From contig JBDRFV010000004.1 in the NCBI GenBank assembly GCA_043818335.1, positions 1-36,068 of the forward strand: a DNA stretch of 36,068 nucleotides. The letters run 5' to 3'. This DNA comes from Patescibacteria group bacterium (lineage in GTDB: Bacteria; Patescibacteriota; Minisyncoccia; Phycocordibacterales; UBA9973). Shown here piece after piece: positions 1-24,467 of the stretch; position 1 is the first letter of the stretch, and each line of letters begins with the position of its first letter. The position numbers were made by a program, and so were the translations under genes. The notes beneath the pieces are model-generated. The model did no database searches, was not told where the DNA came from, and saw only the letters and a list, made by a program, of their open reading frames with translations.

Positions 1-124
1 CCTCGGCCGTAGCCTATAGGCGAGGCAGTGGTAAGAATGTATTTTGTTTGAGCGTGTAGTTCCCTCGGCCGTAGCCTATAGGCGAGGCAGTGGTAAGAAT
101 GTATTTTGTTTGAGCGTGTAGTTC
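1..124 (+). repeat. Perfect tandem duplication, 2 x 62 bp (1-62 = 63-124)
   Basis: Read base by base, the two copies are identical. Each unit holds a GC-rich hairpin (cctcggcc..ggcgagg), a TGGTAAGAAT box and the first 13 nt of the tRNA (gagcgtgtagttc). The window edge may hide further copies. Confidence 0.9.
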
Positions 125-186
125 AGTGGTAGAACGCTGTCCTGATAAGACAGAGGCCGATGGTTCGATCCCATCCACGCTCACCA
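112..186 (+). tRNA. tRNA-Ile, anticodon GAU, encoded CCA end
   Basis: Hand-folded 75-nt cloverleaf. Acceptor stem GAGCGTG/CACGCTC, D arm GTTC-AGTGGTA-GAAC, anticodon arm CTGTC-CTGATAA-GACAG, T arm GATGG-TTCGATC-CCATC, then ACCA. Confidence 0.9.
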
Positions 187-5848: not shown

Positions 5849-6688
5849 ATGGCATTAGCACAAAAAGCGGAAAAGAATATTACATTGTTTGAAGGAAATA
5901 AAGTCCGACGAATTTGGCATGACGGCAGATGGTTTTTTTCTGTGATCGATGTAATTCAAGTTTTAACAGAAAGTACTATACCAAAAAGATACTGGTCTGA
6001 TCTTAAAAATAGGCTTAAATTGGAAGGTAGTGAAGTGTACGAAAAAATCGTACGGTTGAAACTAATTGCGGAAGACGGTAAATATAGAGAAACAGATATA
6101 GCTGATGCACAAATAATGCTTCGTCTTATCCAATCAATTCCATCGCCAAAAGCTGAACCTTTTAAAATATGGTTGGCAAAAGTAGGACAAGAACGGTTAG
6201 AAGAAATAGAAGATCCAGAACGAGCAATGTTACGAGCGCAGAAAATTTACGAAATGAAAGGTTATTCAGAAGAATGGATTGGAAAAAGGATGCGAGGAAT
6301 TGCTGTGCGAAATACTTTGACTGACGAATGGGACAAGCGAGGCATAAAAAATAAAATTGAGTACGCGATTTTGACAAATGAAATAATGCAAGGAACTTTT
6401 GATATGAAAGTGGAAGATTATAAAAAACATAAAAATCTTGCGATGCAACATAATTTAAGAGATCATATGGGAGATATTGAATTGATTTTAACCATGCTTG
6501 CTGAAGCTACAACAACAAAACTTTCCATTGATCGTGATTCAAAAGGTTTCAGAAAATTACATGGCGACGCGAAAGAAGGTGGGGAAATTGTTGGTAAAAC
6601 TCGCAAAGAAATAGAAAACCGTTCTGGTAAAAAAATCGCAACCCAGAAGAATTTTTTGAATATTAAAAAGAAAAAGATGTTAAAATAA
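5849..6688 (+). CDS. DinD-like / Bro-N domain protein (DNA-damage-inducible protein D family)
   Basis: The N-terminus FEGNKVRRIWHDGRWFFSVIDVIQVL is typical of Bro-N. The later segment PFKIWLAKVGQERLEEIEDPERA...KGYSEEWI...IAVRNTLTDEW matches DinD-type proteins as I recall them. Confidence 0.75.
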   Translation: MALAQKAEKNITLFEGNKVRRIWHDGRWFFSVIDVIQVLTESTIPKRYWSDLKNRLKLEGSEVYEKIVRLKLIAEDGKYRETDIADAQIMLRLIQSIPSPKAEPFKIWLAKVGQERLEEIEDPERAMLRAQKIYEMKGYSEEWIGKRMRGIAVRNTLTDEWDKRGIKNKIEYAILTNEIMQGTFDMKVEDYKKHKNLAMQHNLRDHMGDIELILTMLAEATTTKLSIDRDSKGFRKLHGDAKEGGEIVGKTRKEIENRSGKKIATQKNFLNIKKKKMLK

Positions 6689-6700
6689 TTTTATAATTTT

Positions 6701-6775
6701 ATGCTATTAGCACAAAAAGCAACCCCAGAAGCAGAACAAGTTCGCTACGGGGCAGGTAAAACAAAAAATAAATGA
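6701..6775 (+). CDS. Possible 24-aa ORF (MLLAQKATPEAEQVRYGAGKTKNK) overlapping the atpG start by ATGA
   Basis: Its first 20 nt nearly repeat the start of the dinD-like gene (ATGGCATTAGCACAAAAAGC vs ATGCTATTAGCACAAAAAGC). It may be a relic rather than a gene. Confidence 0.2.
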   Translation: MLLAQKATPEAEQVRYGAGKTKNK

Positions 6776-7683
6776 AAACGAAAGAAATAAAACTTAAGAT
6801 TAAATCAGTAAGCAACATCAAGAAAATCACCAAAACAATGGAGATGGTTTCTGTTTCAAAAATGCGTCGCGCAGTTGATAAAGCTTTATCTTCTCGTTCT
6901 TATTCGCATTATGCTTTAGAGCTTTTGGTGAATTTGTCTAGAGATAAAAATACCGAGCATCCTTTGATGATTACTCCAGCAAAAGCAGAAAATAAAGAAC
7001 TTTTAATTATTGTTACAAGTAATAAGGGCTTGTGTGGTGGTTATCATACGAATTTATTTAAAGCGTTAAATTTATATATTAAAAAAGAAGAAAATAAAAA
7101 TAGGGAATTTAAAGCAGTAACTATTGGAAAATACGGCGAAAAAATTTGTAAAAAATTAAATATTCCAATGTTTGCTAGTTTTATAACTTTTTCTGAACAT
7201 TCAGATATTAATCAGACAAAAGAGTTGAGCGATTTAGTTGCAGAAGAATTTAAAAAAGGAGAATATGCAAGTGTAAAAATTTTATATACAGAATTTTTGA
7301 AATCAACTACTTACAAACCAGTTTTGCGAGAATTATTTCCATTAAGTGTAGAAACAGTAAAAAACGTAGTGGAAGATATTTCAGAAAACGAAGGAGTTGT
7401 AATAGACGAAAAAAGTTTAGTTGATTATCAGTTTGAACCAGATTTGAATATTATATTAGAAAGTATCTTGCCTGGTTTAGTAGATATTGTTGTGTATCAG
7501 ACTTTAGCTGAAGCATATGCTTCAGAGCACTCAGCAAGAATGTTTGCTATGAAAAATGCAGGAGACAGCGCAAGTACGATTTTAGATGAACTTACACTTT
7601 CTTATAATCATGCAAGACAAGATGGAATTACAAAAGAGCTTTTCGAAATAGTCGCCGGAGCGGAAGCTTTAAATACGAATTAG
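6772..7683 (+). CDS. atpG: F0F1 ATP synthase subunit gamma
   Basis: N-terminus IKSVSNIKKITKTMEMVSVSKMRRA and C-terminus ARQDGITKELFEIVAGAEAL are classic gamma termini. Confidence 0.93.
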   Translation: MKTKEIKLKIKSVSNIKKITKTMEMVSVSKMRRAVDKALSSRSYSHYALELLVNLSRDKNTEHPLMITPAKAENKELLIIVTSNKGLCGGYHTNLFKALNLYIKKEENKNREFKAVTIGKYGEKICKKLNIPMFASFITFSEHSDINQTKELSDLVAEEFKKGEYASVKILYTEFLKSTTYKPVLRELFPLSVETVKNVVEDISENEGVVIDEKSLVDYQFEPDLNIILESILPGLVDIVVYQTLAEAYASEHSARMFAMKNAGDSASTILDELTLSYNHARQDGITKELFEIVAGAEALNTN

Positions 7684-7688
7684 AAATT

Positions 7689-7961
7689 ATGGAAAATCTT
7701 GAACAACAATCTGAATTAAAAAAGTTAAAATTTTCAAATGAAGGCATTATGTTATATGAAGATAATCAGCTTATTTTAAGTGAAAAATTAAAAAAAGAAG
7801 GATGGATGTTGGGAATGAGTTTTCAAGATAAAAGTAATGAAAAAATTGTTTCTGATGAAATTATAAGATTAAAAAGTTTGAAATATGAAGTAATGGGATT
7901 AATGGTAAGAGGGAAGGAATACATTAAGTGTTTAATATATAGAGATACTTTAAAAAAGTAA
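7689..7961 (+). CDS. Hypothetical 90-aa protein inserted between atpG and atpD
   Basis: ORF on the operon strand, 5 nt after the atpG stop. No motif recognised. Confidence 0.45.
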   Translation: MENLEQQSELKKLKFSNEGIMLYEDNQLILSEKLKKEGWMLGMSFQDKSNEKIVSDEIIRLKSLKYEVMGLMVRGKEYIKCLIYRDTLKK

Positions 7962-7996
7962 AATTATTAAAAAATTATTATTATTAAAATTATTAA

Positions 7997-9400
<1,404 letters not shown>

Positions 9401-10947: not shown

Positions 10948-11041
10948 AATTGTGTTTTTTAATTTATATTTAGTTATTTATTTACTACTCTACACATTAT
11001 GACGTAAATCTTGTCAATATATTACATTTGAATTTATAAAC

Positions 11042-11071
11042 AAAAAAGCCATTCTGGTTGCCCAGAACAGC
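11042..11071 (-). terminator. Rho-independent terminator for the minus-strand receiver operon
   Basis: On the minus strand: gctgttctgg-gcaa-ccagaatggc followed by TTTTTT. Confidence 0.55.
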
Positions 11072-11077
11072 TTTGTC

Positions 11078-11254
11078 TTATCTTAAAAAGAAAATAAAAA
11101 AAGTTTCTTCCTTATACTTCTTTTTATTGAAGCAGAAGAGGAAAAATCTTTTGACTTCCCAAAAAATCAATATTGAGAGACAACTAACTAAAACCCAGAT
11201 GCCTCCTCCTATGGAATAAAACCATTCCAAAATACTTCTTATTTCTTTTGTCAT
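11078..11254 (-). CDS. Possible 58-aa membrane peptide (MTKEIRSILEWFYSIGGGIWVLVSCLSILIFWEVKRFF...)
   Basis: Hand-translated ORF below the track cutoff. It starts 20 nt after the stop of the 11275..11691 gene and ends just before the terminator hairpin. One hydrophobic helix. Confidence 0.35.
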   Translation of the reverse strand: MTKEIRSILEWFYSIGGGIWVLVSCLSILIFWEVKRFFLFCFNKKKYKEETFFIFFLR

Positions 11255-11274
11255 AATAAAGTTGGTTTTTGGTT

Positions 11275-11691
11275 TTAAGAATTATTTTTTAGCAAAAATT
11301 TGCTTTTGATTGTTTCTAAATTAGTTTCAGAAATAATCTGGTCAAGATTTTTGGTGTGTTTTAAAAAACACATTTCCGGATCGTCCATGTTTCTTTTTGC
11401 TTTCATAAGAAAGAAACCATTTGTCGAAAGCAAGAAAACCGTTGCGTCTTGGTTAAATTTCTTGATTTTCCAAATTAACAACATGGCTGTTTTGCCATGT
11501 TCAGAGCATCCATCCAGATAGATAAGATCAAAAGCTTCGTACTCGATCCTTCTTCTTGCGTCTGCAAAAACATAGGCTTGAATGAATTCACACTCAATTT
11601 CTATTTCAAGAAAAATTTTTTCTAATAACATCTTAACTGCAGAAGATATTTTATAATTCTCTTCTACAAGCAATACTTTGATTTTTCTCAT
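11275..11691 (-). CDS. Stand-alone receiver (CheY-like REC) domain protein, paralog 1
   Basis: KIKVLLVEEN, FDLIYLDG (acceptor Asp), VFLLSTN (Ser/Thr) and CFLKH (Lys). No output domain. Confidence 0.7.
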   Translation of the reverse strand: MRKIKVLLVEENYKISSAVKMLLEKIFLEIEIECEFIQAYVFADARRRIEYEAFDLIYLDGCSEHGKTAMLLIWKIKKFNQDATVFLLSTNGFFLMKAKRNMDDPEMCFLKHTKNLDQIISETNLETIKSKFLLKNNS

Positions 11692-11702
11692 GACTGTGTT
11701 TT

Positions 11703-12125
11703 TTAGGAATTCTTTTCTACAATTTTTAATCTGATTGTCTCCAGATCTTTAGCAGAGATAATCTGTTCAAAATTTTCTACATGCTTCATGAAACACATTG
11801 TAGGATCAAAACAGTTCGTTGCTTTTATTAGAAAGTTAGGGTTGGCAGAGAGTATAAATACAGTTGCCCCTAGATTGTTTTTGTATATTTTCGGAATTAG
11901 AGGTAACGTTGACATGTTGTTCTTGAGAGTGCCGTCCAAATAAATCAAATCAAATTCCTCATGCTCGATTCGGATTCGGGTATCTGATACAGACGAAGTT
12001 CTCGTGAACTCACAGACGATTCTCATTTCTTGGTTGGGATTATAGAAAGTTTTTCCCAACAATTTTTCAATTAGATAAGCCATTTTTGGATTATCTTCTG
12101 TAATTAGTACTTTAATTTTTTCCAT
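11703..12125 (-). CDS. Stand-alone receiver (CheY-like REC) domain protein, paralog 2
   Basis: KIKVLITEDN, FDLIYLDG, VFILSAN and CFMKH. Collinear with paralog 1. Confidence 0.7.
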   Translation of the reverse strand: MEKIKVLITEDNPKMAYLIEKLLGKTFYNPNQEMRIVCEFTRTSSVSDTRIRIEHEEFDLIYLDGTLKNNMSTLPLIPKIYKNNLGATVFILSANPNFLIKATNCFDPTMCFMKHVENFEQIISAKDLETIRLKIVEKNS

Positions 12126-13309: not shown

Positions 13310-14059
13310 CTATTTCTTTGCTTCTGCCCCCTTTCCGTTGGGGACTTTACGGGCCTTTGCCTTTTCAGCGGCCGGCTTTTTGGCCACTTTTTTCTTGGCG
13401 ACTACTTTCTTAGCAGGTACTTTTTTGGCAGCAGCGGCTTTTTTCTTCCCAGCTGGCAGGACGACCGGCACTTCCGACTTAATTTCCTTTTCGTCAGTAG
13501 CTGGTGTTTTCACCACTTCGGCTTCGGCAACGAGGATCACTTCGGGCTCAACTTTTTCCTTTACAGGCTCTTTGAACCATTTCTTGTCGGCCAGAAAGTT
13601 TTTGAGAGCATTTCTCTCGCTGAGTGTTATTTCGAAATTCTCTTCAGCGAGATCTGCCATTTTGAGGCAGTTTTCTTTGTTGATGATCACAAGTTTCTTT
13701 CCGTTTACCGGAATTGTCTTAAGCTCCATTATTTCTACAGGAGATAATTTCCTGACTATGGGGCGAAGGACATTAACGATCATAATGACGCTGTAGAAAT
13801 TCTGGTGAAAGGTTTTTTCTGCATAGTCTTTTACGACCAGCAGAATATCCATTTCCAGAATATCGTTGATCACGTTGCCCTGAATGCGGTTTAGGACGAC
13901 CATAAACAAGCTCCCCGCATTTTTGATTAAATTCATCATGTTGTTTTTTTCAGCCTGCAAGATTTCCCTGCCTGCTTTTTTCATACGGCTGATACGGTCA
14001 GCTCCGTTCGTGATAACATCGTAATGTTCACGAATTTTCTGATTCTGATTGTTTGCCAT
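13310..14059 (-). CDS. Hypothetical protein with a Lys/Ala-rich histone H1-like C-terminal tail
   Basis: 249 aa. The last ~50 aa read PAGKKKAAAAKKVPAKKVVAKKKVAKKPAAEKAKARK. The N-terminal ~170 aa are not low-complexity. The gene is clearly G+C-richer than its neighbours. Confidence 0.7.
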   Translation of the reverse strand: MANNQNQKIREHYDVITNGADRISRMKKAGREILQAEKNNMMNLIKNAGSLFMVVLNRIQGNVINDILEMDILLVVKDYAEKTFHQNFYSVIMIVNVLRPIVRKLSPVEIMELKTIPVNGKKLVIINKENCLKMADLAEENFEITLSERNALKNFLADKKWFKEPVKEKVEPEVILVAEAEVVKTPATDEKEIKSEVPVVLPAGKKKAAAAKKVPAKKVVAKKKVAKKPAAEKAKARKVPNGKGAEAKK

Positions 14060-15024: not shown

Positions 15025-16476
15025 ATGTTTGAACAATCATTTAAAAATATAGATAATATTCTACACACAGATTCTGGTTGTGGCACTGAGCTTGATTATA
15101 TTGAACAGACTTCTTGGATTTTATTTTTAAAATACCTTGATGATTTAGAGGAAACTAAAAAAACAGAATTTGCTCTTGCTGGTAAAAAATATAATTATAT
15201 TCTATCTCCTGAATATCGTTGGGATACTTGGGCTTGTCCAAAAACTAAAGATGATAAATTAGATCATAATAAAATATTAAGTGGTGATGATTTAAATAAT
15301 TTTGTAAATAATAAACTTTTTTCATATCTTAAAAAATTTAGATCCGAAGAACCAAATTCAATTGAATATAAAATTGGTGAAATTTTTCATGAGCTAAAAA
15401 ATAAAATTTCCAGTGGTTATAAATTACGAGAGATTTTAAATATTGTTGATGGTATGCATTTTCGTTTACATGAAGAAAAACATGAACTTTCTCACTTATA
15501 TGAAGCTAAAATAAAAAATATGGGAAACGCTGGTAGAAATGGTGGGGAGTACTATACACCACGACCTCTTATTAAAACTATTGTTAAAGTAGTCGGTCCT
15601 AAAATCGGAGATACTATCTATGACGGAGCTTGTGGTTCTGCTGGGTTTCTAGTTGAAGCTTATAACTATCTTACAGAGAATCAATCTAAGCTTTCGCCAA
15701 GTCAGATGCAGACACTTCAAAATAAAACTTTTTATGGAAAAGAGATAAAATCTCTAGCATATATTATTGGTATTATGAATATGATATTGCATGGTATTGA
15801 AGCACCAAATATAAGACACATGGATACTCTCTCAGAAAATATTAATGATATTCAAGAGAAAGATAGATATAATATAATTTTAGCTAATCCTCCATTTGGA
15901 GCAAAGCTTGGACGCGAAATTCAGCAAAATTTTCCAATCAAATCAACTTCGTCTGATAATCTATTTTTACAACATTTTATTAAAATCCTAAAAGCTGGAG
16001 GTAGAGCAGGAATAATCATTAAAAACACTTTTCTTTCTAACACTGATAATGCGTCTGTTTCTTTAAGGAAGCTTTTATTAGAGAATTGTAATCTTCATAC
16101 AGTATTAGATTTGCCCGGTGGAGCGTTTCAGGGGGCAGGAGTTAAAACTGTAGTTCTATTCTTTGAGAAGGGGGCTCCAACTAAAAAAGTTTGGTTCTAT
16201 CAACTTAATCTTGAGCGTAATCTTGGTAAAGGTAATCCTTTAAATGAAAAAGATTTAGCTGAATTCGTTAAACTTCAAAAGACTAAAGCCGATAGCGATA
16301 ACTCTTGGAGTATAGATATTAAAGACGTAAATAAAGAAACTTTTGATTTGTCTGTTAAGAATCCAAGTAAGGGAGGAGAAGTTGTCCTAAGAGAGCCTAA
16401 GGATATTTTAGAAGAGATGGATAAGTTGGATAAAGAAAGTGAAAAAATATTATTAACAATAAAGTCTAAAATATAA
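15025..16476 (+). CDS. hsdM: Type I restriction-modification system, DNA methyltransferase subunit M
   Basis: GEYYTPRPL, AdoMet motif DGACGSAGFL and catalytic NPPFG. HsdM-type N-terminus (EQTSWILFLKYLDD). Confidence 0.93.
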   Translation: MFEQSFKNIDNILHTDSGCGTELDYIEQTSWILFLKYLDDLEETKKTEFALAGKKYNYILSPEYRWDTWACPKTKDDKLDHNKILSGDDLNNFVNNKLFSYLKKFRSEEPNSIEYKIGEIFHELKNKISSGYKLREILNIVDGMHFRLHEEKHELSHLYEAKIKNMGNAGRNGGEYYTPRPLIKTIVKVVGPKIGDTIYDGACGSAGFLVEAYNYLTENQSKLSPSQMQTLQNKTFYGKEIKSLAYIIGIMNMILHGIEAPNIRHMDTLSENINDIQEKDRYNIILANPPFGAKLGREIQQNFPIKSTSSDNLFLQHFIKILKAGGRAGIIIKNTFLSNTDNASVSLRKLLLENCNLHTVLDLPGGAFQGAGVKTVVLFFEKGAPTKKVWFYQLNLERNLGKGNPLNEKDLAEFVKLQKTKADSDNSWSIDIKDVNKETFDLSVKNPSKGGEVVLREPKDILEEMDKLDKESEKILLTIKSKI

Positions 16477-16481
16477 TTTTT

Positions 16482-16964
16482 ATGGCTGATTTAAATTTAA
16501 TTAAGGTGGAGAATAAGTTTGAAAATGGTTCTCTTGATTTTCTAAATCCAATAAATTGGTTTAGGAAAAAATACACAAAAGATAGTGTAAATATTTTATT
16601 CATTGATGACCTAGATATGCCAGTTGTGGAAAGTTTAAAGAAAGCCCACTTTAAAGTTAAAAAGGTTAGAGATGTTAAAGATGTGGATGATGCGGAAGTT
16701 AAAAATGCTCAGATAATTTTTGTCGATTTTGATGGAGTTGGAAAATTTGTGTCCCCCCAACATCAAGGTGCTGGTTTGGTTAAGGAATTAAAAATAAAAT
16801 ATAAATCTTCTAAATATGTTGTTTTTTATACAGCTCAACCTAATATACCTACAGACACAATAATGAGTTCCATGTTTAATATGGCAGATGCAAGAATGAG
16901 AAAAGATTCAGATGTAACAGATTTTACAGAACAAATACGTGAAGCCCTAAAAAAGTTAAAATGA
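16482..16964 (+). CDS. Receiver (REC)-like domain protein embedded between hsdM and hsdS
   Basis: 160 aa. ILFIDDLD (D42, D43), IIFVDFDG (D82/D84), VVFYTAQ (T117) and RMRKDS (K141) follow the order and spacing of CheY-like key residues. Assignment by eye only. Confidence 0.55.
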   Translation: MADLNLIKVENKFENGSLDFLNPINWFRKKYTKDSVNILFIDDLDMPVVESLKKAHFKVKKVRDVKDVDDAEVKNAQIIFVDFDGVGKFVSPQHQGAGLVKELKIKYKSSKYVVFYTAQPNIPTDTIMSSMFNMADARMRKDSDVTDFTEQIREALKKLK

Positions 16965-17956
16965 TTTTTTTTGAAGTAAAAGATAATAATGGAAAAATTA
17001 TTGCAGGTAATATGCAAGATTTTTCTGGAAGGAATAAGTTTGAAAACAATAAAAATTTTTCTGAAAATAAAAATGGAAAGGGGTTGAAGGGTATTCACGA
17101 AATTATAGAAAATGTTAGTCTGTGGGTAATCATTGAAGATGAGTATGATTTATTAAAAAGCTCAAAACTTCTTAAGAAAACTATTACTCTGTATAGAGTT
17201 ATTGCTCTTGGTGTATATAAACAATACAAAAAAGAGATTAACGCATATGCACATATATTAAACACAATTCAAGCACAAATTAGACAACAGTTAGATAACT
17301 TTGCTGATAATAAAGAGTTTTTCGGGGAAACATATACTGATTCAGTAGAAAAGATATCAAAAATTATAAATGATGATAAAGAATCTGCAGCTGATCTAAT
17401 CTGTTATATACAAAAGAGAATTATAGATATGAGGGCACATCTTCTTGGTGTTGAAATAATTAATTCAGGTGAAGAATATGAAATAAAACCAATGGTAGTT
17501 AGTTTGAAAAGAGCAATTTTAAATCAATGCACTCCATTTTTAGAAGAATTTGAAAAAAACATGATTAACATAAAATTCTTTTTTGGAGATGAATGTGAAA
17601 CTAAGGTTGATAAAAATATGTTTAGTCTCATTATGTATAATTTTTTTTCTAATGCAACAAAATATACTAAACCGAATAGTGAGATAAGGTTTAATTACTC
17701 AAATGATCTAAAAAGCCTTGATATTTCTATGATAAGTTTAAGAATGGAAAGGCACGAGCTTGCAGATTTATCCATGGATGGAGTGCGAGGGCAACATGCA
17801 AAAAATATACCAGGTAAAGGAATTGGTCTATTTGTTATACAAAAAGCTTTAGAATTGATGAAAAAAGACAAAATGTATATATCACCAAATTACGAAAAAG
17901 TTTTTTATGAGGATGATCTTACTTATAATGAGAATCATTTTAAATTTGTATTATGA
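16961..17956 (+). CDS. Cytoplasmic histidine-kinase-like (GHKL) protein embedded between hsdM and hsdS
   Basis: 331 aa with no TM helix. N-box MYNFFSNATKYT (N231), G2-like GKGIGLFVIQ, and a candidate H-box AYAHILNTIQ (H98). No clear DxGxG G1 box. ATGA overlaps at both ends. Confidence 0.6.
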   Translation: MIFFEVKDNNGKIIAGNMQDFSGRNKFENNKNFSENKNGKGLKGIHEIIENVSLWVIIEDEYDLLKSSKLLKKTITLYRVIALGVYKQYKKEINAYAHILNTIQAQIRQQLDNFADNKEFFGETYTDSVEKISKIINDDKESAADLICYIQKRIIDMRAHLLGVEIINSGEEYEIKPMVVSLKRAILNQCTPFLEEFEKNMINIKFFFGDECETKVDKNMFSLIMYNFFSNATKYTKPNSEIRFNYSNDLKSLDISMISLRMERHELADLSMDGVRGQHAKNIPGKGIGLFVIQKALELMKKDKMYISPNYEKVFYEDDLTYNENHFKFVL

Positions 17957-19104
17957 AAACTAAATGGCAGACAAAAAAATTTGGAGAAGTTTGTGATTTT
18001 TATAATGGAAAAGCACATGAGAAAGTTATTGATGCAAACGGCAATTATATCGTAGTAAATTCAAAGTTTATATCTTCTGATGGTGAAAAATATAAAAAAA
18101 CAAAAAAAGCACTTTTCCCGTTAATTAAAGGTGATATTGTAATGGTAATGAGTGATGTTCCAAGTGGAAAAACCTTAGCTAAGTGTTTTATTATAGATAA
18201 AGAGAATACATACACCTTAAATCAGCGAATTTGTGCCATTCGTTCTAAAGTATTTGAGACAAGATTTCTATATCTTCAACTCAACAGACATAAATATTTA
18301 TTGAGTTTTGATAATGGAGAGAATCAAACAAATCTTAGAAAAGATGATATTTTAAATTGTCCATTACTTGTTCCACCTATTTTAGAGCAAAAACATATAA
18401 TAAAAACTCTAGATGAAATGTTTGAAAAAATTAAAAAAGCCAAAGAAAATACTGAAAAGAATCTACAAAATTCTAAGGCACTTTTTGAATCGTATTTACA
18501 GGATATTTTTACGAACCCAGGAAAAGATTTAGAAGAAAAGAAATTAGGAGATGTTTGTGATTTTGTACAGGGTATTCAGGTTGACGCAAAACTTCAAAGT
18601 GAAATAAAAAAAGAAAACCAAATAAGATTTTTAAGAATAATAGATTTTACGCAAGGTGATGAATTACCTCGTTATATAGATAACCCAGGTGAAAAATATA
18701 TAATTAACTCAAATGATATTTCATTAGTTAGATACGGGGCATCAACTGGTTTTGTATGTAAGGGATTGAACGGAGTATTGGCTAATAATCTATTTAGGGT
18801 GATACCAAAAAATAACAAAGAAATATCTAATGAATATTTATATATTTTTTTAATGTCTCCTGTTTTTCAAAATTCAATTAAAGCAAGTATGGGTGGAACA
18901 GCAATGCCAGCGATAAGTTTTGGTTTAATAAAAGATATAATAATTCCATTAATGTCATTTTCTGAACAAAAAGCTATTGTCAAAAAACTTGATGAGCTTT
19001 CAAATCAAACTAAAAAACTAGAAGTTATTTACAAACAAAAGCTAGCAGATTTAGAAGACTTAAAGAAGTCGGTTTTAAAAAAGGCTTTTGTAGGGGAGTT
19101 ATAG
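17953..19104 (+). CDS. hsdS: Type I restriction-modification system, specificity subunit S
   Basis: Two target-recognition halves each open with KKFGEVCDF / KKLGDVCDF. Each is followed by a conserved helical spacer (EQKHIIKTLDE..., EQKAIVKKLDE...). Confidence 0.9.
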   Translation: MKTKWQTKKFGEVCDFYNGKAHEKVIDANGNYIVVNSKFISSDGEKYKKTKKALFPLIKGDIVMVMSDVPSGKTLAKCFIIDKENTYTLNQRICAIRSKVFETRFLYLQLNRHKYLLSFDNGENQTNLRKDDILNCPLLVPPILEQKHIIKTLDEMFEKIKKAKENTEKNLQNSKALFESYLQDIFTNPGKDLEEKKLGDVCDFVQGIQVDAKLQSEIKKENQIRFLRIIDFTQGDELPRYIDNPGEKYIINSNDISLVRYGASTGFVCKGLNGVLANNLFRVIPKNNKEISNEYLYIFLMSPVFQNSIKASMGGTAMPAISFGLIKDIIIPLMSFSEQKAIVKKLDELSNQTKKLEVIYKQKLADLEDLKKSVLKKAFVGEL

Positions 19105-19153
19105 GAATAGAGACTCCACACTAAGGCATATATAGGTAATACAAAAGTAAAAC

Positions 19154-19200
19154 AGTTTGTATACAAGTGTTGACCTAATATATACAAACTAGGGTATTTT
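19154..19200 (+). promoter_or_regulatory. Perfect 10-bp inverted repeat AGTTTGTATA-N17-TATACAAACT enclosing TTGACC
   Basis: Arms at 19154-19163 and 19181-19190. TTGACC at 19170-19175 is followed 19 nt later by TATTTT (19195-19200). Candidate operator/promoter. Confidence 0.4.
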
Positions 19201-19213
19201 GTATCTATGTAGA

Positions 19214-19282
19214 GTAGTTATGAACAGTGAATGAGTAGATTGATGTATTTTTGGGTAGATTTAGTGGCTAGTTGTGTAGATT
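19214..19282 (+). repeat. Four phased direct repeats GTAG(A)TT at 19214, 19235, 19255 and 19276
   Basis: Spacing is 21, 20 and 21 bp, about two helical turns. A tandem GATAGTAT GATAGTAT follows at 19285-19300. Confidence 0.6.
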
Positions 19283-19291
19283 TAGATAGTA

Positions 19292-19300
19292 TGATAGTAT
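19292..19300 (+). promoter_or_regulatory. Extended -10 box TGATAGTAT, 6 nt before the ATG at 19307
   Basis: Hexamer TAGTAT at 19295-19300, spacer taaaat, then ATG. Confidence 0.4.
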
Positions 19301-19306
19301 TAAAAT

Positions 19307-20026
19307 ATGGAAGAAAAATTATTAACAATTGGTCAAGCCGCTGAATATCTTGGGGTTTCTTTGAATACTCTTCGTCGTTGGGACGAAAATGGTAAATTGG
19401 TTGCTATTAAAAAAGATGGTGGAACTCATCGATATTATCGTGAAAAAGATTTAGAAATATTTACCAGTGATTTAATGAGTTTTGCTTCTGAGTGGATTAA
19501 AACAGGAGTCGAATTTCCAGGAACATTTTTTTGTCCTACAAGTTCAATTTTTAATGCTAGACTAACAAAAATGGAATATGCATTAATGCAGAAACCAGGG
19601 TTTGAAAAGTTATATTCTTTGATTGTTCTTCTTGCTGGAGAAATCGGTGATAATTCATTTGCTCATAATATAGGAAAATGGCCAGATACAGTGGGAATTT
19701 TTTTTGGTTATGATTTAGAAAAAAGAATTATCGTACTAGCTGATCGAGGATTAGGTATTTTAGAAACATTACGGAAAGTCAGACCAGGACTTTCTAGTCA
19801 TGTAGAAGCAGTCAGAGTGGCATTTACTGAATTTATTTCTGGCAGGGCTCCAGAGAAACGCGGAAATGGTCTAAAGCTTGTTCGTGAAGTAATTACAGAA
19901 AATCCAATTGATTTATTTTACACAACTGGTGATGCTGAAGTAAGAATGAAAGGTTCGGACAAAGCATTTCATGTTATGCGTGGTCAGCATATAGTGAGAG
20001 GTTGTTTAGCAAAAATAGAATTTTAA
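19307..20026 (+). CDS. MerR/excisionase-type HTH fused to an anti-sigma-kinase-like GHKL ATPase domain
   Basis: N-terminus LTIGQAAEYLGVSLNTLRRWDENGKL. The C-terminal half has GEIGDNSFAHN (N-box-like), ADRGLGI (G1-like) and RGNGLKLV (G2-like). Confidence 0.6.
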   Translation: MEEKLLTIGQAAEYLGVSLNTLRRWDENGKLVAIKKDGGTHRYYREKDLEIFTSDLMSFASEWIKTGVEFPGTFFCPTSSIFNARLTKMEYALMQKPGFEKLYSLIVLLAGEIGDNSFAHNIGKWPDTVGIFFGYDLEKRIIVLADRGLGILETLRKVRPGLSSHVEAVRVAFTEFISGRAPEKRGNGLKLVREVITENPIDLFYTTGDAEVRMKGSDKAFHVMRGQHIVRGCLAKIEF

Positions 20027-20046
20027 AATTTTAATAAATAAAAAAT

Positions 20047-20337
20047 ATGAAATTACAACTAGGAAAATTTGGCAAAACATTAATATCACGGGAATTAGGG
20101 AGTGAGGCTCTTAAGGCATTTCAGTCAACACTGCGTGAGCTTTCTAAAGATGAAGAACTTGAAATAGATTTTTCTGAGGTATTAACGTTGTCACCTTCAT
20201 GGGCTGATGAATTTTTAAGTCCACTGCTTGATATTCTTAATGATCGCTTGATTTTATTATCTAGTGATAATCTTTCAGTACAAGCAACACTTAAAATTCT
20301 TAAAGAGGTTAATAAGCGACCATTTAAAATAAGATAA
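20047..20337 (+). CDS. STAS-like (DUF4325-like) small protein
   Basis: 96 aa. The core EIDFSEVLTLSPSWADEFLSPLL resembles the DF-x-V-x3-S-x-S-F-x-DE pattern of STAS-like/anti-sigma-antagonist folds. Confidence 0.55.
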   Translation: MKLQLGKFGKTLISRELGSEALKAFQSTLRELSKDEELEIDFSEVLTLSPSWADEFLSPLLDILNDRLILLSSDNLSVQATLKILKEVNKRPFKIR

Positions 20338-20342
20338 ACTTT

Positions 20343-22700
20343 ATGAACGAATCAGAAACACGAGCAGAATACATTGACCCAAAACTTAAAGCGAGTGGCT
20401 GGGGTGAAGTGGAAGGCTCAAAAATTCTTCGAGAATTTCGTATTACAGATGGAAAAATTTTAACTGGTGGAACGAGAAGTAAACCTGAAATTGCTGATTA
20501 TGTTTTAATATATAAAAATAGAAAGATTGGAGTTGTAGAAGCTAAAGCAGAAAATTTACCAATGACTGAAGGAGTAGCTCAAGCTAAAACTTATGCAGAA
20601 AAGTTGCATATTGATTACACATATTCAACAAACGGAAAAGGAATTTATGAGATTTCAATGAAAACAGGAGAAGAGAAAGAAATTGAAAAATTTCCAACAC
20701 CTGAAGAACTTTGGAATAAAACTTTTTCTGATCAAAATGAATGGAAAGAAAAATTTGATAATATTGCCAACGAAGGCGAATATGGCAAGCGTTATTATCA
20801 ACAAATAGCTATTAGTAATGTTTTAAATGCTATTGCAGAAGATAAAAAGAAAATACTTTTAACAATGGCTACTGGAACTGGAAAAACCGCTGTCGCTTTT
20901 CAAATTGCTTGGAAACTTTTTCAAACTAGATGGACTTTAAAAGGTGATGGTGAACGACGTCCAAGAATATTATTTTTAGCTGATAGAAATATTTTAGCTG
21001 ATCAAGCATATAATGCTTTTTCTGCTTTTGATAAAGATGCATTAGTTCGTATCAATCCTTTAGATATTCGCAAGAAAGGTGGAGTGCCGATGAGTAATAG
21101 TATTTATTTTACAATTTTTCAAACTTTCATGAGTGGGGCGAATGATACACCATATTTTGGAGATTACCCAAAAGATTTTTTTGATTTTATCATTATTGAT
21201 GAATGTCATCGTGGTGGTGCAAATGATGAAAGTAATTGGCGGGGAATTTTAGAATATTTTTCTCCCGCAGTTCAATTAGGATTAACCGCTACTCCAAAAA
21301 GACAAGACAACACTGATACTTATAAATATTTTGGTGAGCCAGTTTATATTTATTCTCTTAAAGAAGGAGTGAATGATGGATTTTTGACACCATTTAAAGT
21401 TAAGCGAATAAAAACTACTTTAGATGATTATGTTTATACTTCTGATGATCAGATTATTGAAGGAGAAGTAGAAGAAGGAAAAATTTACGAAGAGTCTGAT
21501 TTTAATCGAGTTATAGAAATAAAAGAACGTGAATCTAAAAGAGTTCGTATAGTTTTAAATGAAATTAATCAAAATGAAAAGACAATTATATTTTGCGCTA
21601 CTCAAGATCATGCTTTAGCTGTCCGTGATTTAATAAATCAAATGAAAGACAGTAAGGATCCAAATTATTGTGTTCGTGTAACTGCGAATGATGGATTTCG
21701 TGGTGAACAATATTTGAGAGAGTTTCAAGACAATGAAAAAACAATTCCAACGATTTTAACTACTTCTCAAAAACTTTCTACTGGAGTAGATGCTCGTAAT
21801 ATACGAAATATTGTTTTGATGAGACCTGTAAATTCAATGATTGAATTTAAACAGATTATTGGGAGAGGAACTAGACTTTTTGATGGTAAAGAATATTTTA
21901 CTGTTTATGATTTTGTTGACGCTTATCACCATTTTGCTGATCCAGAATGGGATGGTGATCCAGTAGTAGAGATTTGTTCAAATTGTGGAAAAGATCCCTG
22001 TGAGTGTGAAAAACAGCCTCCAAAAGTATGTTCTGTATGCAATAAAAGACCTTGCGAGTGTGAAAAACCACCTAGAATTTGTCCTGTATGCAAGAAAGAC
22101 CCATGTGAATGTGATGCAAAGAAAAAAATAAAAATAAAATTAAGAGATGGAAAAGAAAGAGAAATTCAACACATGATTTCTACTTCATTTTGGGGAGCAG
22201 ATGGAAAACCTATTTCTTCTGAAGAATTTATTACTAAAATATATGGCGTATTACCAGACTTCTTCAAGAATGAAGATGAATTAAGAATAATTTGGTCTAA
22301 TCCAATAACAAGAAAAGAATTTTTACAAAGACTTTTTGATTTAGGAATTGATTTAGAACAATTAGATAATATTCGAAAAGTAGTTAATGGAGAAGATTGT
22401 GATTTATTTGATGTTCTTTCATATTTGTCATACCACACACCATTAATTACTAGACAGCAAAGAATAAATAATACAAAAGAAAATATTTTTGCTGGAGTTG
22501 ATGAAAAGAATAAAGAATTTTTAGATTTTGTTTTATCTAAGTATGAAGAAAAAGGAGTAGAAGAATTGGATGAAGAAAAATTACCACAATTACTAAATCT
22601 TAAATATCATGCAATTTCTGATGCAATAAATATTCTTGGTGATGTTGATTTAATCCGTTCAACCTTTTTTGATTTTCAAGAACATTTGTATAGTAAATAA
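20343..22700 (+). CDS. hsdR: Type I restriction-modification system, restriction/helicase subunit R
   Basis: N-terminus ESETRAEYIDPKLKASGW with the nuclease core ADYVL...GVVEAKA. Helicase motifs TGTGKT and DECHRG plus later motifs. Cys-rich insert at residues ~545-591. Confidence 0.93.
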   Translation: MNESETRAEYIDPKLKASGWGEVEGSKILREFRITDGKILTGGTRSKPEIADYVLIYKNRKIGVVEAKAENLPMTEGVAQAKTYAEKLHIDYTYSTNGKGIYEISMKTGEEKEIEKFPTPEELWNKTFSDQNEWKEKFDNIANEGEYGKRYYQQIAISNVLNAIAEDKKKILLTMATGTGKTAVAFQIAWKLFQTRWTLKGDGERRPRILFLADRNILADQAYNAFSAFDKDALVRINPLDIRKKGGVPMSNSIYFTIFQTFMSGANDTPYFGDYPKDFFDFIIIDECHRGGANDESNWRGILEYFSPAVQLGLTATPKRQDNTDTYKYFGEPVYIYSLKEGVNDGFLTPFKVKRIKTTLDDYVYTSDDQIIEGEVEEGKIYEESDFNRVIEIKERESKRVRIVLNEINQNEKTIIFCATQDHALAVRDLINQMKDSKDPNYCVRVTANDGFRGEQYLREFQDNEKTIPTILTTSQKLSTGVDARNIRNIVLMRPVNSMIEFKQIIGRGTRLFDGKEYFTVYDFVDAYHHFADPEWDGDPVVEICSNCGKDPCECEKQPPKVCSVCNKRPCECEKPPRICPVCKKDPCECDAKKKIKIKLRDGKEREIQHMISTSFWGADGKPISSEEFITKIYGVLPDFFKNEDELRIIWSNPITRKEFLQRLFDLGIDLEQLDNIRKVVNGEDCDLFDVLSYLSYHTPLITRQQRINNTKENIFAGVDEKNKEFLDFVLSKYEEKGVEELDEEKLPQLLNLKYHAISDAINILGDVDLIRSTFFDFQEHLYSK

Positions 22701-23498: not shown

Positions 23499-24467
23499 GT
23501 GAAAAAGAAAAATATTAAAAATAAAAAGTTGATTATTTTTCAAGCAAAATCTGGAGCTATTGAACTTCGAGGTGACTTTAAACGTGAAACCGTATGGGCT
23601 ACACAGGCTCAAATAGTTGAACTTTTTAGGGTTGATCAATCAGTAGTTTCTCGCCATATTAAGAATCTTTTTAAAGATGGAGAAATAAAACAAAAAAGCA
23701 ATATGCAAAAAATGCATATTGCAAATTCAGATAAACCTATAACCCTTTATTCTCTTGATGTTATTTTAGGAGTAGGCTATAGAACAAATTCAAAAATAGC
23801 TATAGAATTTAGAAAATGGGCAACAAAAACTTTAAGTAATTATATAGTAGACGGTTATGCGATAAACAAAAATAGAATTGCAAAAAATTATGATGAATTT
23901 TTGAAAACAGTAGAAAATATTAAAAATATTTTGCCATCTGGAACGGCTATAGATAATAAAGATGTAGTCGATTTAATTTCTCTTTTTGCTGATACTTGGC
24001 TTTCTTTAGATGCTTATGATAAAGAAATTTTTCCTAAAGGAAAATTAACAAGAAAAAAGGTTACTTTTACTGCTCAAACAATTTCAAAAAATCTATCACA
24101 ATTTAAAATAAGTTTATTAGAAAAAGGTGAAGCCAGCGATATTTTTGGAATAGAAAGAGAAAAGGGAAATGTTTCTGGAATTATTGGAAATGTAATGCAA
24201 TCTTTTGGTGGAAAAGAATTATACTCAACTATTGAGGAAAAAGCTGCACACCTGCTTTATTTTATGGTTAAAAATCATCCTTTTATTGATGGCAATAAGC
24301 GTAGTGGCGCATTTGTTTTTGTGTTGTTTTTACAACAAGCAAAAGTTTTAAATATCAGAAAAATTACACCATCCGCTTTAACTGCGCTTACTATTATGGT
24401 TGCAGAGAGCAACCCTAGTCATAAAGAAAAAGTTGTTAAATTAATTTTGGACTTAATTTCTAGATAA
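23499..24467 (+). CDS. RhuM-like N-terminal domain fused to a Fic/DOC domain
   Basis: The N-terminal half has ETVWATQAQIVELFRVDQSVVSRHIKNLF...AIEFRKWATKTL (RhuM-type). The C-terminal half has the Doc-type motif HPFIDGNKRSG. Confidence 0.8.
   Translation: MKKKNIKNKKLIIFQAKSGAIELRGDFKRETVWATQAQIVELFRVDQSVVSRHIKNLFKDGEIKQKSNMQKMHIANSDKPITLYSLDVILGVGYRTNSKIAIEFRKWATKTLSNYIVDGYAINKNRIAKNYDEFLKTVENIKNILPSGTAIDNKDVVDLISLFADTWLSLDAYDKEIFPKGKLTRKKVTFTAQTISKNLSQFKISLLEKGEASDIFGIEREKGNVSGIIGNVMQSFGGKELYSTIEEKAAHLLYFMVKNHPFIDGNKRSGAFVFVLFLQQAKVLNIRKITPSALTALTIMVAESNPSHKEKVVKLILDLISR

Follow-up and report, generated by a model that had tools for sequence, protein, structure and literature searches.

What does a gene pair resembling a regulatory kinase and its substrate do between the specificity and restriction genes of a type I restriction-modification (R-M) operon? 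The question is posed by a 36,068-nt stretch of DNA from a Patescibacteria group bacterium (GenBank assembly GCA_043818335.1, contig JBDRFV010000004.1, positions 1 to 36,068; hereinafter the window, meaning the whole stretch that was analyzed), in which genes for a protein uniting a helix-turn-helix (HTH) with a GHKL-type domain and for a small STAS-like protein directly precede hsdR. Combining sequence profile searches, structure models and gene neighborhood comparisons, we consider it probable that the segment from ~19210/19235 to 20337 is a two-gene cassette of the CapK/CapS-VapK/VapS type, autonomous and self-regulated, that has been locally co-opted to drive hsdR at this site. Kinase-STAS modules of this kind were described in 2026 (PMC13373217); the architecture found in the window is a new variant. 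The pair had been singled out in an earlier note made from the sequence alone, and its open reading frames (ORFs) of 239 and 96 aa, the gaps of 20 and 5 nt that follow them and the residue numbers used below were all recovered exactly as given there:

19307-20026, + strand: gene for the 239-aa HTH-GHKL protein (Pfam HTH match, invariant GHKL boxes, AlphaFold2 model)
20047-20337, + strand: gene for the 96-aa STAS-like DUF4325 protein (VapS/CapS-type), starting after a 20-nt gap
20343-22700, + strand: hsdR (EcoAI/type IB family), starting 5 nt past the DUF4325 stop codon

The 239-aa protein comprises a BldC/MerR-like HTH (residues ~1-54), a conserved N-terminal extension (residues 55-100) and a GHKL kinase-type domain (residues ~101-239). 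Residues 5-52 match the Pfam HTH_17, MerR and excisionase-type models (E 1e-10 to 1e-11), bearing out the MerR/excisionase-type HTH read from the bare sequence, and the best PDB sequence matches of this region are the BldC-DNA complexes 6AMK and 6AMA. The NCBIfam BldC model scores the protein at 27 bits, far under its cut-off of 77, and the architecture is not that of a classical MerR protein, since only the HTH part (residues 5-52) matches and the sites upstream of the gene are direct repeats with no palindrome. The C-terminal 185 residues found no match in Pfam, NCBIfam or PADLOC; none of the PADLOC models matched the GHKL domain or the DUF4325 protein even at E<=10, and PDB sequence searches with the 239-aa protein and with the kinase-family profile returned HTH matches only. 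The nature of the C-terminal domain emerges from an alignment of 54 relatives with identities down to ~30%, across which E112, N116, H120, N121, G130, D146, G148, G150, R185, G186, G188 and L189 are invariant. These residues delineate the N box (E112/N116 in GEIGDN), the G1 box (D146-R-G148-L-G150) and the G2 box (R185-G-N-G-L189) in the correct GHKL order; hence the E112-x3-N116, D146-x-G-x-G and GNGL (186-189) patterns noticed in the single sequence are no chance resemblances. Weak Pfam matches were recovered among the same relatives to HATPase_c_2 (10 of 54, best E 7e-4) and HATPase_c (9 of 54).

An AlphaFold2 model of the whole protein is confident (predicted local distance difference test score [pLDDT] 92.7, predicted template modeling score [pTM] 0.81). 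When it was compared with the PDB using Foldseek, the 33 matches at E<=1e-3, like the others in the top 50, proved to be GHKL domains (Hsp90, TRAP1 and GyrB; E ~1e-4, probability 0.87-1.0, full-chain template modeling score [TM] 0.27-0.35). Because the model is confident and all its top PDB matches are GHKL domains, we assign the C-terminal half to the Bergerat fold, as the earlier note had anticipated. In the model, the HTH is separated from the GHKL domain by just ~45 residues, which form two helices and a short strand, and the ATP-lid region between G1 and G2 (residues 151-185) is long. W63 and Y75-C76 are nearly invariant in the N-terminal extension, which might, speculatively, be a candidate sensor. 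When 1.84 billion cluster representatives were searched exhaustively, a compact kinase family of 292 clusters emerged, with two main architectures, one HTH-fused (~240 aa) and the other stand-alone (~190 aa). About one-third of the family has no N-terminal domain at all; elsewhere, the MerR/BldC-like HTH is swapped for a different winged-helix or ArsR-like N-terminal domain (P0271, P0275, P0277 and P0286) or replaced by a cytidylyltransferase-like domain (P0273). Two distant stand-alone homologs, P0279 and P0328, lie on short, uninformative contigs.

Profile-profile comparisons with hhalign placed this family next to the kinase VapK of E. coli (probability 87%, E 4e-6, 146 columns), with an alignment that spans the whole GHKL domain from VapK residue 119 and takes in an NSF[D/E]H motif common to both. 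The corresponding comparison of the STAS family with VapS gave 82% (E 1e-5). Controls with SpoIIAB, whose sequence was validated, and with a histidine-kinase-like protein encoded elsewhere in the window reached just 0.8% and 0.4%, respectively; since both stay under 1%, the similarity to VapK is specific. The E. coli vapKSC locus, which we retrieved, likewise has the kinase gene followed at tight spacing by the STAS gene, the latter coding for a VapS of 116 aa. From the matches to VapK and VapS, we therefore conclude that the window pair belongs to the CapK/VapK plus DUF4325 superfamily in a different architecture. An HTH fused to a kinase-like GHKL domain and accompanied by a STAS-like serine partner is thus what the earlier note had correctly discerned; its assignment of the kinase to the SpoIIAB/RsbW type is not borne out by sequence, given the 0.8% for SpoIIAB against the 87% for VapK and the lack of a PF13581 match in the window protein.

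The 96-aa protein is the presumed substrate or partner of the kinase. Pfam DUF4325 (PF14213) scores it at 20.8 bits, just under the cut-off of 23, while 29 of 30 diverse relatives match that model (best E 1e-9), and some close homologs (~84-91% identical) bear a precomputed PF14213 annotation. A PDB sequence search with the protein alone found nothing meaningful; the best PDB sequence match of the DUF4325-family profile is 9z7o_A, 'Escherichia VapS' (E 0.057), and the VapS fragment is itself a strong DUF4325 member (E 9e-18). In the AlphaFold2 model (pLDDT 91.1) a STAS fold extends to the end of the chain at residue 96, such that the protein has no C-terminal output module, neither the winged HTH (wHTH) of CapS nor the inhibitory helix of VapS. 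Foldseek relates the model to STAS proteins such as RsbS, TM1442 (RsbV-like), mycobacterial anti-sigma antagonists, the SLC26 STAS domain and SpoIIAA, at TM 0.5-0.68 though with E >= 0.29, and unrelated folds (e.g., ATP-citrate lyase) are also among the matches. Across the 30 DUF4325 relatives, P50, S51, W52, D54 and E55 are invariant; residue 49 is S or T in 28 and G or A in the other two. S49 and S51 lie in IDFSEVLTLSPSWADEF, with helix α2 beginning at residue 50 in the model; S49 and the invariant S51, at the start of this helix, are accordingly presumed to be the candidate phospho-acceptors. The DUF4325 relatives, the STAS-like model and the invariance of S51 together favor the view that this is a STAS-like protein with a conserved serine loop, much as had been proposed from the sequence.

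Is the pair tied to restriction? When GTDB was scanned at one genome per species, at least 598 genomes proved to encode a kinase relative. From these we compiled the best 80 loci (63-90% identity), most of them labeled as metagenome-assembled genomes of Patescibacteria/the candidate phyla radiation (CPR) from many lineages and a few bearing other labels, and added a second set of 80 more distant metagenomic loci seeded with stand-alone kinases. Genes in these loci were called by a simple longest-ORF procedure and hsd genes were detected by phmmer with the window proteins. The pairing itself is nearly obligatory: a DUF4325 gene directly follows the kinase gene in 78 of the 80 CPR loci, the other two being cut by contig ends, and in 59 of the 68 second-set loci with room for it. 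By comparison, hsdM, hsdS or hsdR occurs within 10 kb in ~10 of the 80 CPR loci, and type I R-M genes are nearby in three of the 80 second-set loci, i.e., ~13/160 or ~8% overall, with the proviso that divergent type I families may escape detection beyond the ±2 neighbors scanned with Pfam. Where such genes do occur close by, they mostly adjoin the pair directly (L016, L027, L029, L041 and L079; within one gene in L069), so the association with type I R-M is real though confined to a minority, much as for capKS. An hsdR gene directly after the pair was seen only in the window and in one close relative among the 160 loci; the latter genome has the same hsdS-cassette-hsdR order, with a 13-nt gap and an HsdR 82% identical to that of the window. 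The window gene codes for a bona fide R subunit of the EcoAI family, which scores 830.9 bits with NCBIfam NF046051 (cut-off 550) and shows ResIII, helicase and EcoEI_R_C domains in Pfam; no exact match to its sequence is on record. Between its helicase core and EcoEI_R_C, at residues ~540-600 (window ~21960-22140), three tandem Cys-rich units (CSNCGKDPCEC, CSVCNKRPCEC and CPVCKKDPCEC) look like an inserted zinc-ribbon-like repeat.

The remaining neighbors are highly variable. ORF clustering revealed neither a third gene conserved beside the cassette nor a mobility gene, the largest neighbor family being present in 11 of 80 loci, and no gene for a sigma factor accompanies the pair among the surveyed neighbors. 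Pfam matches within ±2 genes include defense and toxin-antitoxin (TA) functions (Fic, AbiEii, GIY-YIG, type I and type II R-M, DpnI, NYN and IS200) as well as housekeeping ones (aminoacyl-tRNA synthetases, EF-G, S7, SmpB, RuvC and rpoBC), and the genes placed tightly downstream (<=45 nt) code for RadC (three times), HsdM, an alkylation-repair enzyme, SWIB, a Mur ligase and others. Loci in which the pair is followed by an immune gene are a minority that includes the window, and no PIN domain was seen. The pair is therefore not an hsdR accessory; its usual place is elsewhere in the genome, and the tie to restriction seen in the window is local and not a rule. A general connection to hsdR does not hold, type I R-M genes being near the pair in just ~13 of 160 loci, and the prevalence of non-defense contexts without hsdR, which that note had named as telling against its proposal, is largely what we found, the two hsdS-cassette-hsdR loci aside. 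One CPR contig (L069) carries two nearly identical whole cassettes, each with repeats, kinase gene and STAS gene, ~5 kb apart (5952-7091 and 10949-12088), beside hsdM and hsdS.

Relative to the window copy, amino-acid identity has a median of 83% among the kinases and 79% among the STAS proteins. The median synonymous divergence (dS) is ~1.7 and ~1.3, respectively, and often saturated, with ratios of nonsynonymous to synonymous divergence (dN/dS) of ~0.065 and 0.10 that bespeak strong purifying selection. Given the saturated dS, the high identity reflects ancient divergence under such selection, and recent horizontal transfer as its cause was rejected on the same grounds. A tblastn search of plasmid and phage collections with the GHKL domain returned no match, and IMG/VR yielded one kinase relative in 2.9 million contigs. 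This lone representative (L168, IMGVR_UViG_3300022555_001665, positions 7388-8098) is 51% identical and lies at a contig end. A Leptotrichia plasmid match to VapS was discarded as a degraded DUF4325 fragment without a kinase.

If the pair travels as a unit, how far does the unit extend, and what controls it? Blastn comparison with the 80 CPR loci delimits a cassette of ~1.1 kb, from ~19210/19235 to 20337: DNA similarity begins ~75-95 nt upstream of the ATG of the kinase gene (~19210-19235) and ends at the DUF4325 stop codon (~20330-20337), with no similarity to the related loci upstream of ~19210. The upstream part of the conserved block contains the following elements:

19232-19285, + strand: three direct repeats of the form TG-NN-TAGATT, a putative operator for the cassette's own HTH
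19272-19277, + strand: weak -35-like element TTGTGT, overlapping the third repeat
19292-19300, + strand: putative extended -10-like element TGaTAGTAT, read by eye, ending 6 nt before the ATG

The GTAGATT cores of the repeats are at 19235-19241, 19255-19261 and 19276-19282, i.e., spaced by 20 and 21 nt. A correctly spaced triplet was called upstream of the kinase gene in 77 of the 80 sequences, usually ~31 nt before the ATG, the third site of the caller being a downstream -10-like match in about a quarter. The 1.19 Mb made up by the window and the 80 loci contain 155 repeat pairs with the correct spacing, where 3.2 would be expected, and with a single exception these lie directly upstream of the cassette; further operator arrays away from the cassette promoter were not found in this DNA, which is a small part of each genome. 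The dinucleotide preceding TAG shifts in concert across all copies of the repeat, clade by clade, and its type goes with residue 20 in the recognition helix of the HTH: xGTAG with N20 in 37/37, CATAG with D20 in 36/41 and TATAG with M20 in 2/2. Because the clades are not independent, this co-variation is suggestive rather than proof. Taken with the conservation and location of the repeats and the precedent of BldC, it makes it the most economical reading that the HTH would bind the repeats at its own promoter and autoregulate the cassette. The most likely target of the HTH is thus these repeats, which travel with the pair, and not an hsdR-specific operator as had been supposed in the earlier note. 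A TATG-N-TA-NN-AT block is conserved across loci, and since the -10-like element ends just 6 nt ahead of the ATG, the transcript may be leaderless or nearly so. No terminator-like sites were detected on the + strand between hsdS, the cassette and hsdR; given this, the hsdS-cassette-hsdR order and the 5-nt gap, hsdR is probably co-transcribed from the cassette promoter.

The closest functional precedents are the systems described by Chambers et al. (EMBO J 2026, PMC13373217). There, the ssDNA-activated kinase CapK (HTH-STAS-GHKL) phosphorylates a conserved serine on helix α2 of CapS, a STAS-wHTH repressor, and thereby de-represses the adjacent immune operon, whereas VapK (STAS-GHKL) phosphorylates VapS (STAS plus a C-terminal helix), freeing the toxin VapC; capKS pairs lie upstream of immune operons in 348 of 443 cases, and 88 of the 443 (~20%) are directly downstream of an R-M system (PMC13373217). 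Like capKS, the window pair has a kinase gene with an N-terminal HTH directly followed by a STAS gene, a conserved serine on helix α2, an autoregulated promoter (in the window, a predicted one) and, in this window, a defense gene downstream. Nevertheless, CapK has an internal STAS domain providing its ssDNA-sensing interface, which the window kinase lacks; CapS carries a DNA-binding wHTH and is the repressor, while the window STAS protein is bare at 96 aa and it is the kinase that bears the sole DNA-binding domain; the sites of CapS are palindromes, while those of the window are direct repeats; and capKS mostly precedes immune operons, while the genes downstream of window-type pairs are heterogeneous. 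The likeness to CapK is drawn from the published description, the profile comparison having been made with VapK. With VapK/VapS the pair shares a homologous GHKL domain, a DUF4325 partner, the kinase-then-STAS order and tight spacing; it differs in that VapK begins with a STAS domain and lacks an HTH, the reverse of the window kinase, and in that the C-terminal helix of VapS blocks a PIN toxin, VapC, while the CPR cassette has no toxin gene and instead an HTH and an operator array. The SpoIIAB/SpoIIAA and RsbW/RsbV systems are comparable in pairing a GHKL serine kinase with a single-domain STAS substrate bearing the serine at a helix start, but there is no specific sequence kinship, no sigma factor or phosphatase in the cassette, and the window kinase, unlike theirs, bears a DNA-binding domain. 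As for the HTH, its nearest solved relative, BldC, is a MerR-like wHTH whose multimers occupy direct repeats in head-to-tail fashion (PMC5859096), a mode that fits the direct-repeat operator of the cassette; BldC differs in being a stand-alone protein of 68 aa acting on contiguous 9-bp repeats, while the window HTH is fused to a kinase and its repeats are 20-21 nt apart.

On these grounds we propose the following scheme. The HTH of the kinase would bind the three direct repeats overlapping its own promoter, as their conservation, exclusive location and co-variation with the HTH indicate, and the GHKL domain, by homology, would bind and phosphorylate the STAS partner on a Ser/Thr at the start of helix α2 (S49 or S51). 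More speculatively, the bound or phosphorylated state of the partner might toggle promoter occupancy by the HTH-kinase, such that the DNA-binding output would reside on the kinase and not on its substrate. From the anatomy of the locus, hsdR would here be transcribed from the regulated promoter of the cassette, which would make expression of the restriction subunit dependent on the switch; this wiring is most likely a local co-option and not a general role of the family. The idea that the pair may control an adjacent defense gene thus finds a precedent in CapK/CapS, while that of a switch dedicated to hsdR founders on the distribution of the family. A more specific version, which we offer tentatively as possible though rather unlikely, is that of a minimal, 'inverted' CapK/CapS system: the kinase would be the DNA-bound repressor by virtue of its BldC-like HTH, the bare STAS protein a phosphorylatable co-factor setting its occupancy, and the whole would be wired as the hsdR promoter, with HsdR made only upon firing of the switch (e.g., by DNA damage/ssDNA).

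Several observations weigh against the scheme. The co-variation of repeat and recognition helix covers few independent clades. The promoter was read by eye, and since a consensus promoter scan did not call the -10-like element we treat it as a putative one. hsdR could be read through from hsdM/hsdS or transcribed from a promoter of its own that escaped detection. The best Foldseek matches of the GHKL domain are the ATPases Hsp90 and GyrB, not kinases, with low TM values (0.27-0.35), and those of the STAS-like model are non-significant. The sequence match to VapS is marginal when taken alone (E 0.057), and the element by which CapK and VapK sense ssDNA, the STAS-GHKL interface, is absent from the window kinase.

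How do other explanations fare against an autonomous cassette locally co-opted for hsdR? The cassette might serve CPR bacteria as a general regulator that responds to stress or DNA damage, with its position in the hsd operon having no effect and hsdR being served by read-through or by its own promoter. The very strong purifying selection and ancient divergence, which are unusual for defense genes, the occurrence in at least 598 species genomes with many housekeeping neighbors, and the virtual absence from viral, plasmid and phage collections would all suit such a regulator. However, no additional operator arrays, as would point to targets in trans, turned up in the 1.19 Mb of flanks, a small part of each genome; moreover, the 5-nt junction without a terminator makes transcriptional coupling to hsdR hard to avoid, and the arrangement has been kept across 18% divergence of HsdR. 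We regard this explanation as unlikely. The opposite view, put forward in the earlier note, takes the pair to be a dedicated partner-switch accessory of type I R-M that evolved to gate either hsdR transcription or the loading of HsdR onto M2S. It draws on the tight embedding between hsdS and hsdR, the recurrence of this order in a related genome and the direct adjacency of nearby type I R-M genes elsewhere, yet any type I R-M gene is within 8-10 kb in just ~10 of the 80 CPR and three of the 80 distant loci, and the ±2 neighbors are mostly unrelated genes, housekeeping ones included. Furthermore, the conserved DNA ends at the DUF4325 stop codon, the repeats are found essentially only at the cassette promoter, and we saw no feature indicating contact with HsdR or HsdM and none supporting a gate on HsdR loading onto the methylase. 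A dedicated accessory is hence quite improbable.

Two further alternatives, both of which merit still less credence, concern the biochemical nature of the pair. As VapS is a DUF4325 antitoxin released through phosphorylation by VapK, and the pair is often found beside TA and defense genes (AbiE, Fic, RhuM and R-M systems), one could picture a VapKSC-like TA or abortive-infection module in which the STAS protein neutralizes a toxin until phosphorylated. Against such a module stand the lack of a PIN domain or any other conserved third gene, the lack in the 96-aa protein of the C-terminal helix that VapS needs for inhibition, the absence of a PADLOC match, and the purifying selection and absence from mobile elements, which are atypical of such modules. 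Alternatively, the GHKL domain could be a MORC/Hsp90/GyrB-type ATPase acting on DNA via the HTH and no protein kinase, with the STAS-like protein serving as a subunit for ligand binding or regulation and not as a phospho-substrate; the top 50 Foldseek matches are indeed the ATPase domains of Hsp90, TRAP1 and GyrB, the ATP lid (residues 151-185) is long, and the presumed acceptor position 49 is G or A in two of 30 relatives. The profile similarity is nonetheless specifically to a kinase, VapK, the weak Pfam matches of the relatives are to the kinase-type families HATPase_c_2 and HATPase_c, the protein has no transducer or second domain of the GHL ATPases, and its obligate STAS partner has an invariant serine at the canonical position.

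An autonomous, self-regulated cassette that probably drives hsdR in this operon would bear on both signaling and restriction. It adds a third, stripped-down architecture to the GHKL-kinase/STAS systems, very widespread in Patescibacteria (at least 598 species-level genomes), and thereby a conserved signaling module to the CPR bacteria, in which very few regulators are known. The putative operator code, relating residue 20 of the recognition helix to the base pair before TAG, is unusually clean. Classical type I systems are generally considered to regulate HsdR chiefly after translation; the window provides a concrete case in which transcription of hsdR may be conditional, and the inverted switch, if true, would place transcription of a type I restriction subunit under the control of a signal in CPR bacteria, where the module is ancient and constrained much like a housekeeping gene.

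Beyond the cassette, the R-M operon contains additional genes, arranged as follows:

15025-22700, + strand: type I R-M operon with extra genes (ORF calls and family searches)
15025-16476, + strand: hsdM, in the upstream part of the operon, outside the cassette
16482-16964, + strand: PDC-M43A-like gene for a 160-aa protein (PADLOC candidate), outside the cassette
16961-17956, + strand: PDC-M43B-like gene for a 331-aa histidine-kinase-like protein (PADLOC candidate), outside the cassette
17953-19104, + strand: hsdS, outside the cassette, followed by a 202-nt gap up to the 239-aa ORF

The genes for the 160-aa and 331-aa proteins constitute a second signaling-like pair inside the operon (16482-17956, + strand), between hsdM and hsdS, and abut or overlap their neighbors. 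Their products match the PADLOC candidates PDC-M43A (E 9e-27) and PDC-M43B (E 5e-28), respectively, the 331-aa protein with a weak HATPase_c match in addition. Three further CPR hsd loci (L016, L047 and L155) likewise have ~2-3 kb of unassigned genes between hsdM and hsdS. Membership of the operon in the MADS (methylation-associated defense system) family was considered and rejected: the PADLOC mad1 match covers the generic HTH of the 239-aa protein alone (residues 1-58), HsdM and HsdS match mad2/mad5 as ordinary type I subunits, and equivalents of mad3, mad4 and mad6-8 were not found, the MADS model making mad6-mad8 mandatory together with mad2 and mad5 (bioRxiv 2023.03.30.534895).

About 0.8 kb past hsdR, a gene at 23499-24467 (+ strand) codes for a fusion of RhuM with Fic/Doc (PADLOC PDC-S23, E 1e-102). 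Relatives of this fusion adjoin the kinase/STAS cassette directly in three loci (L041, L058 and L133) and lie within a few kb of it in five others (L011, L014, L033, L072 and L113). Upstream of the operon, the gene at 13310-14059 (- strand) codes for a 249-aa protein with a long Lys/Ala-rich C-terminal tail that resembles the histone H1/HC2-type nucleoid proteins, its Pfam HC2 match being weak (E 0.06). Finally, a tRNA-Ile(GAT) gene at 112-186 (+ strand) is the sole Rfam/ARAGORN match in the 36-kb window.

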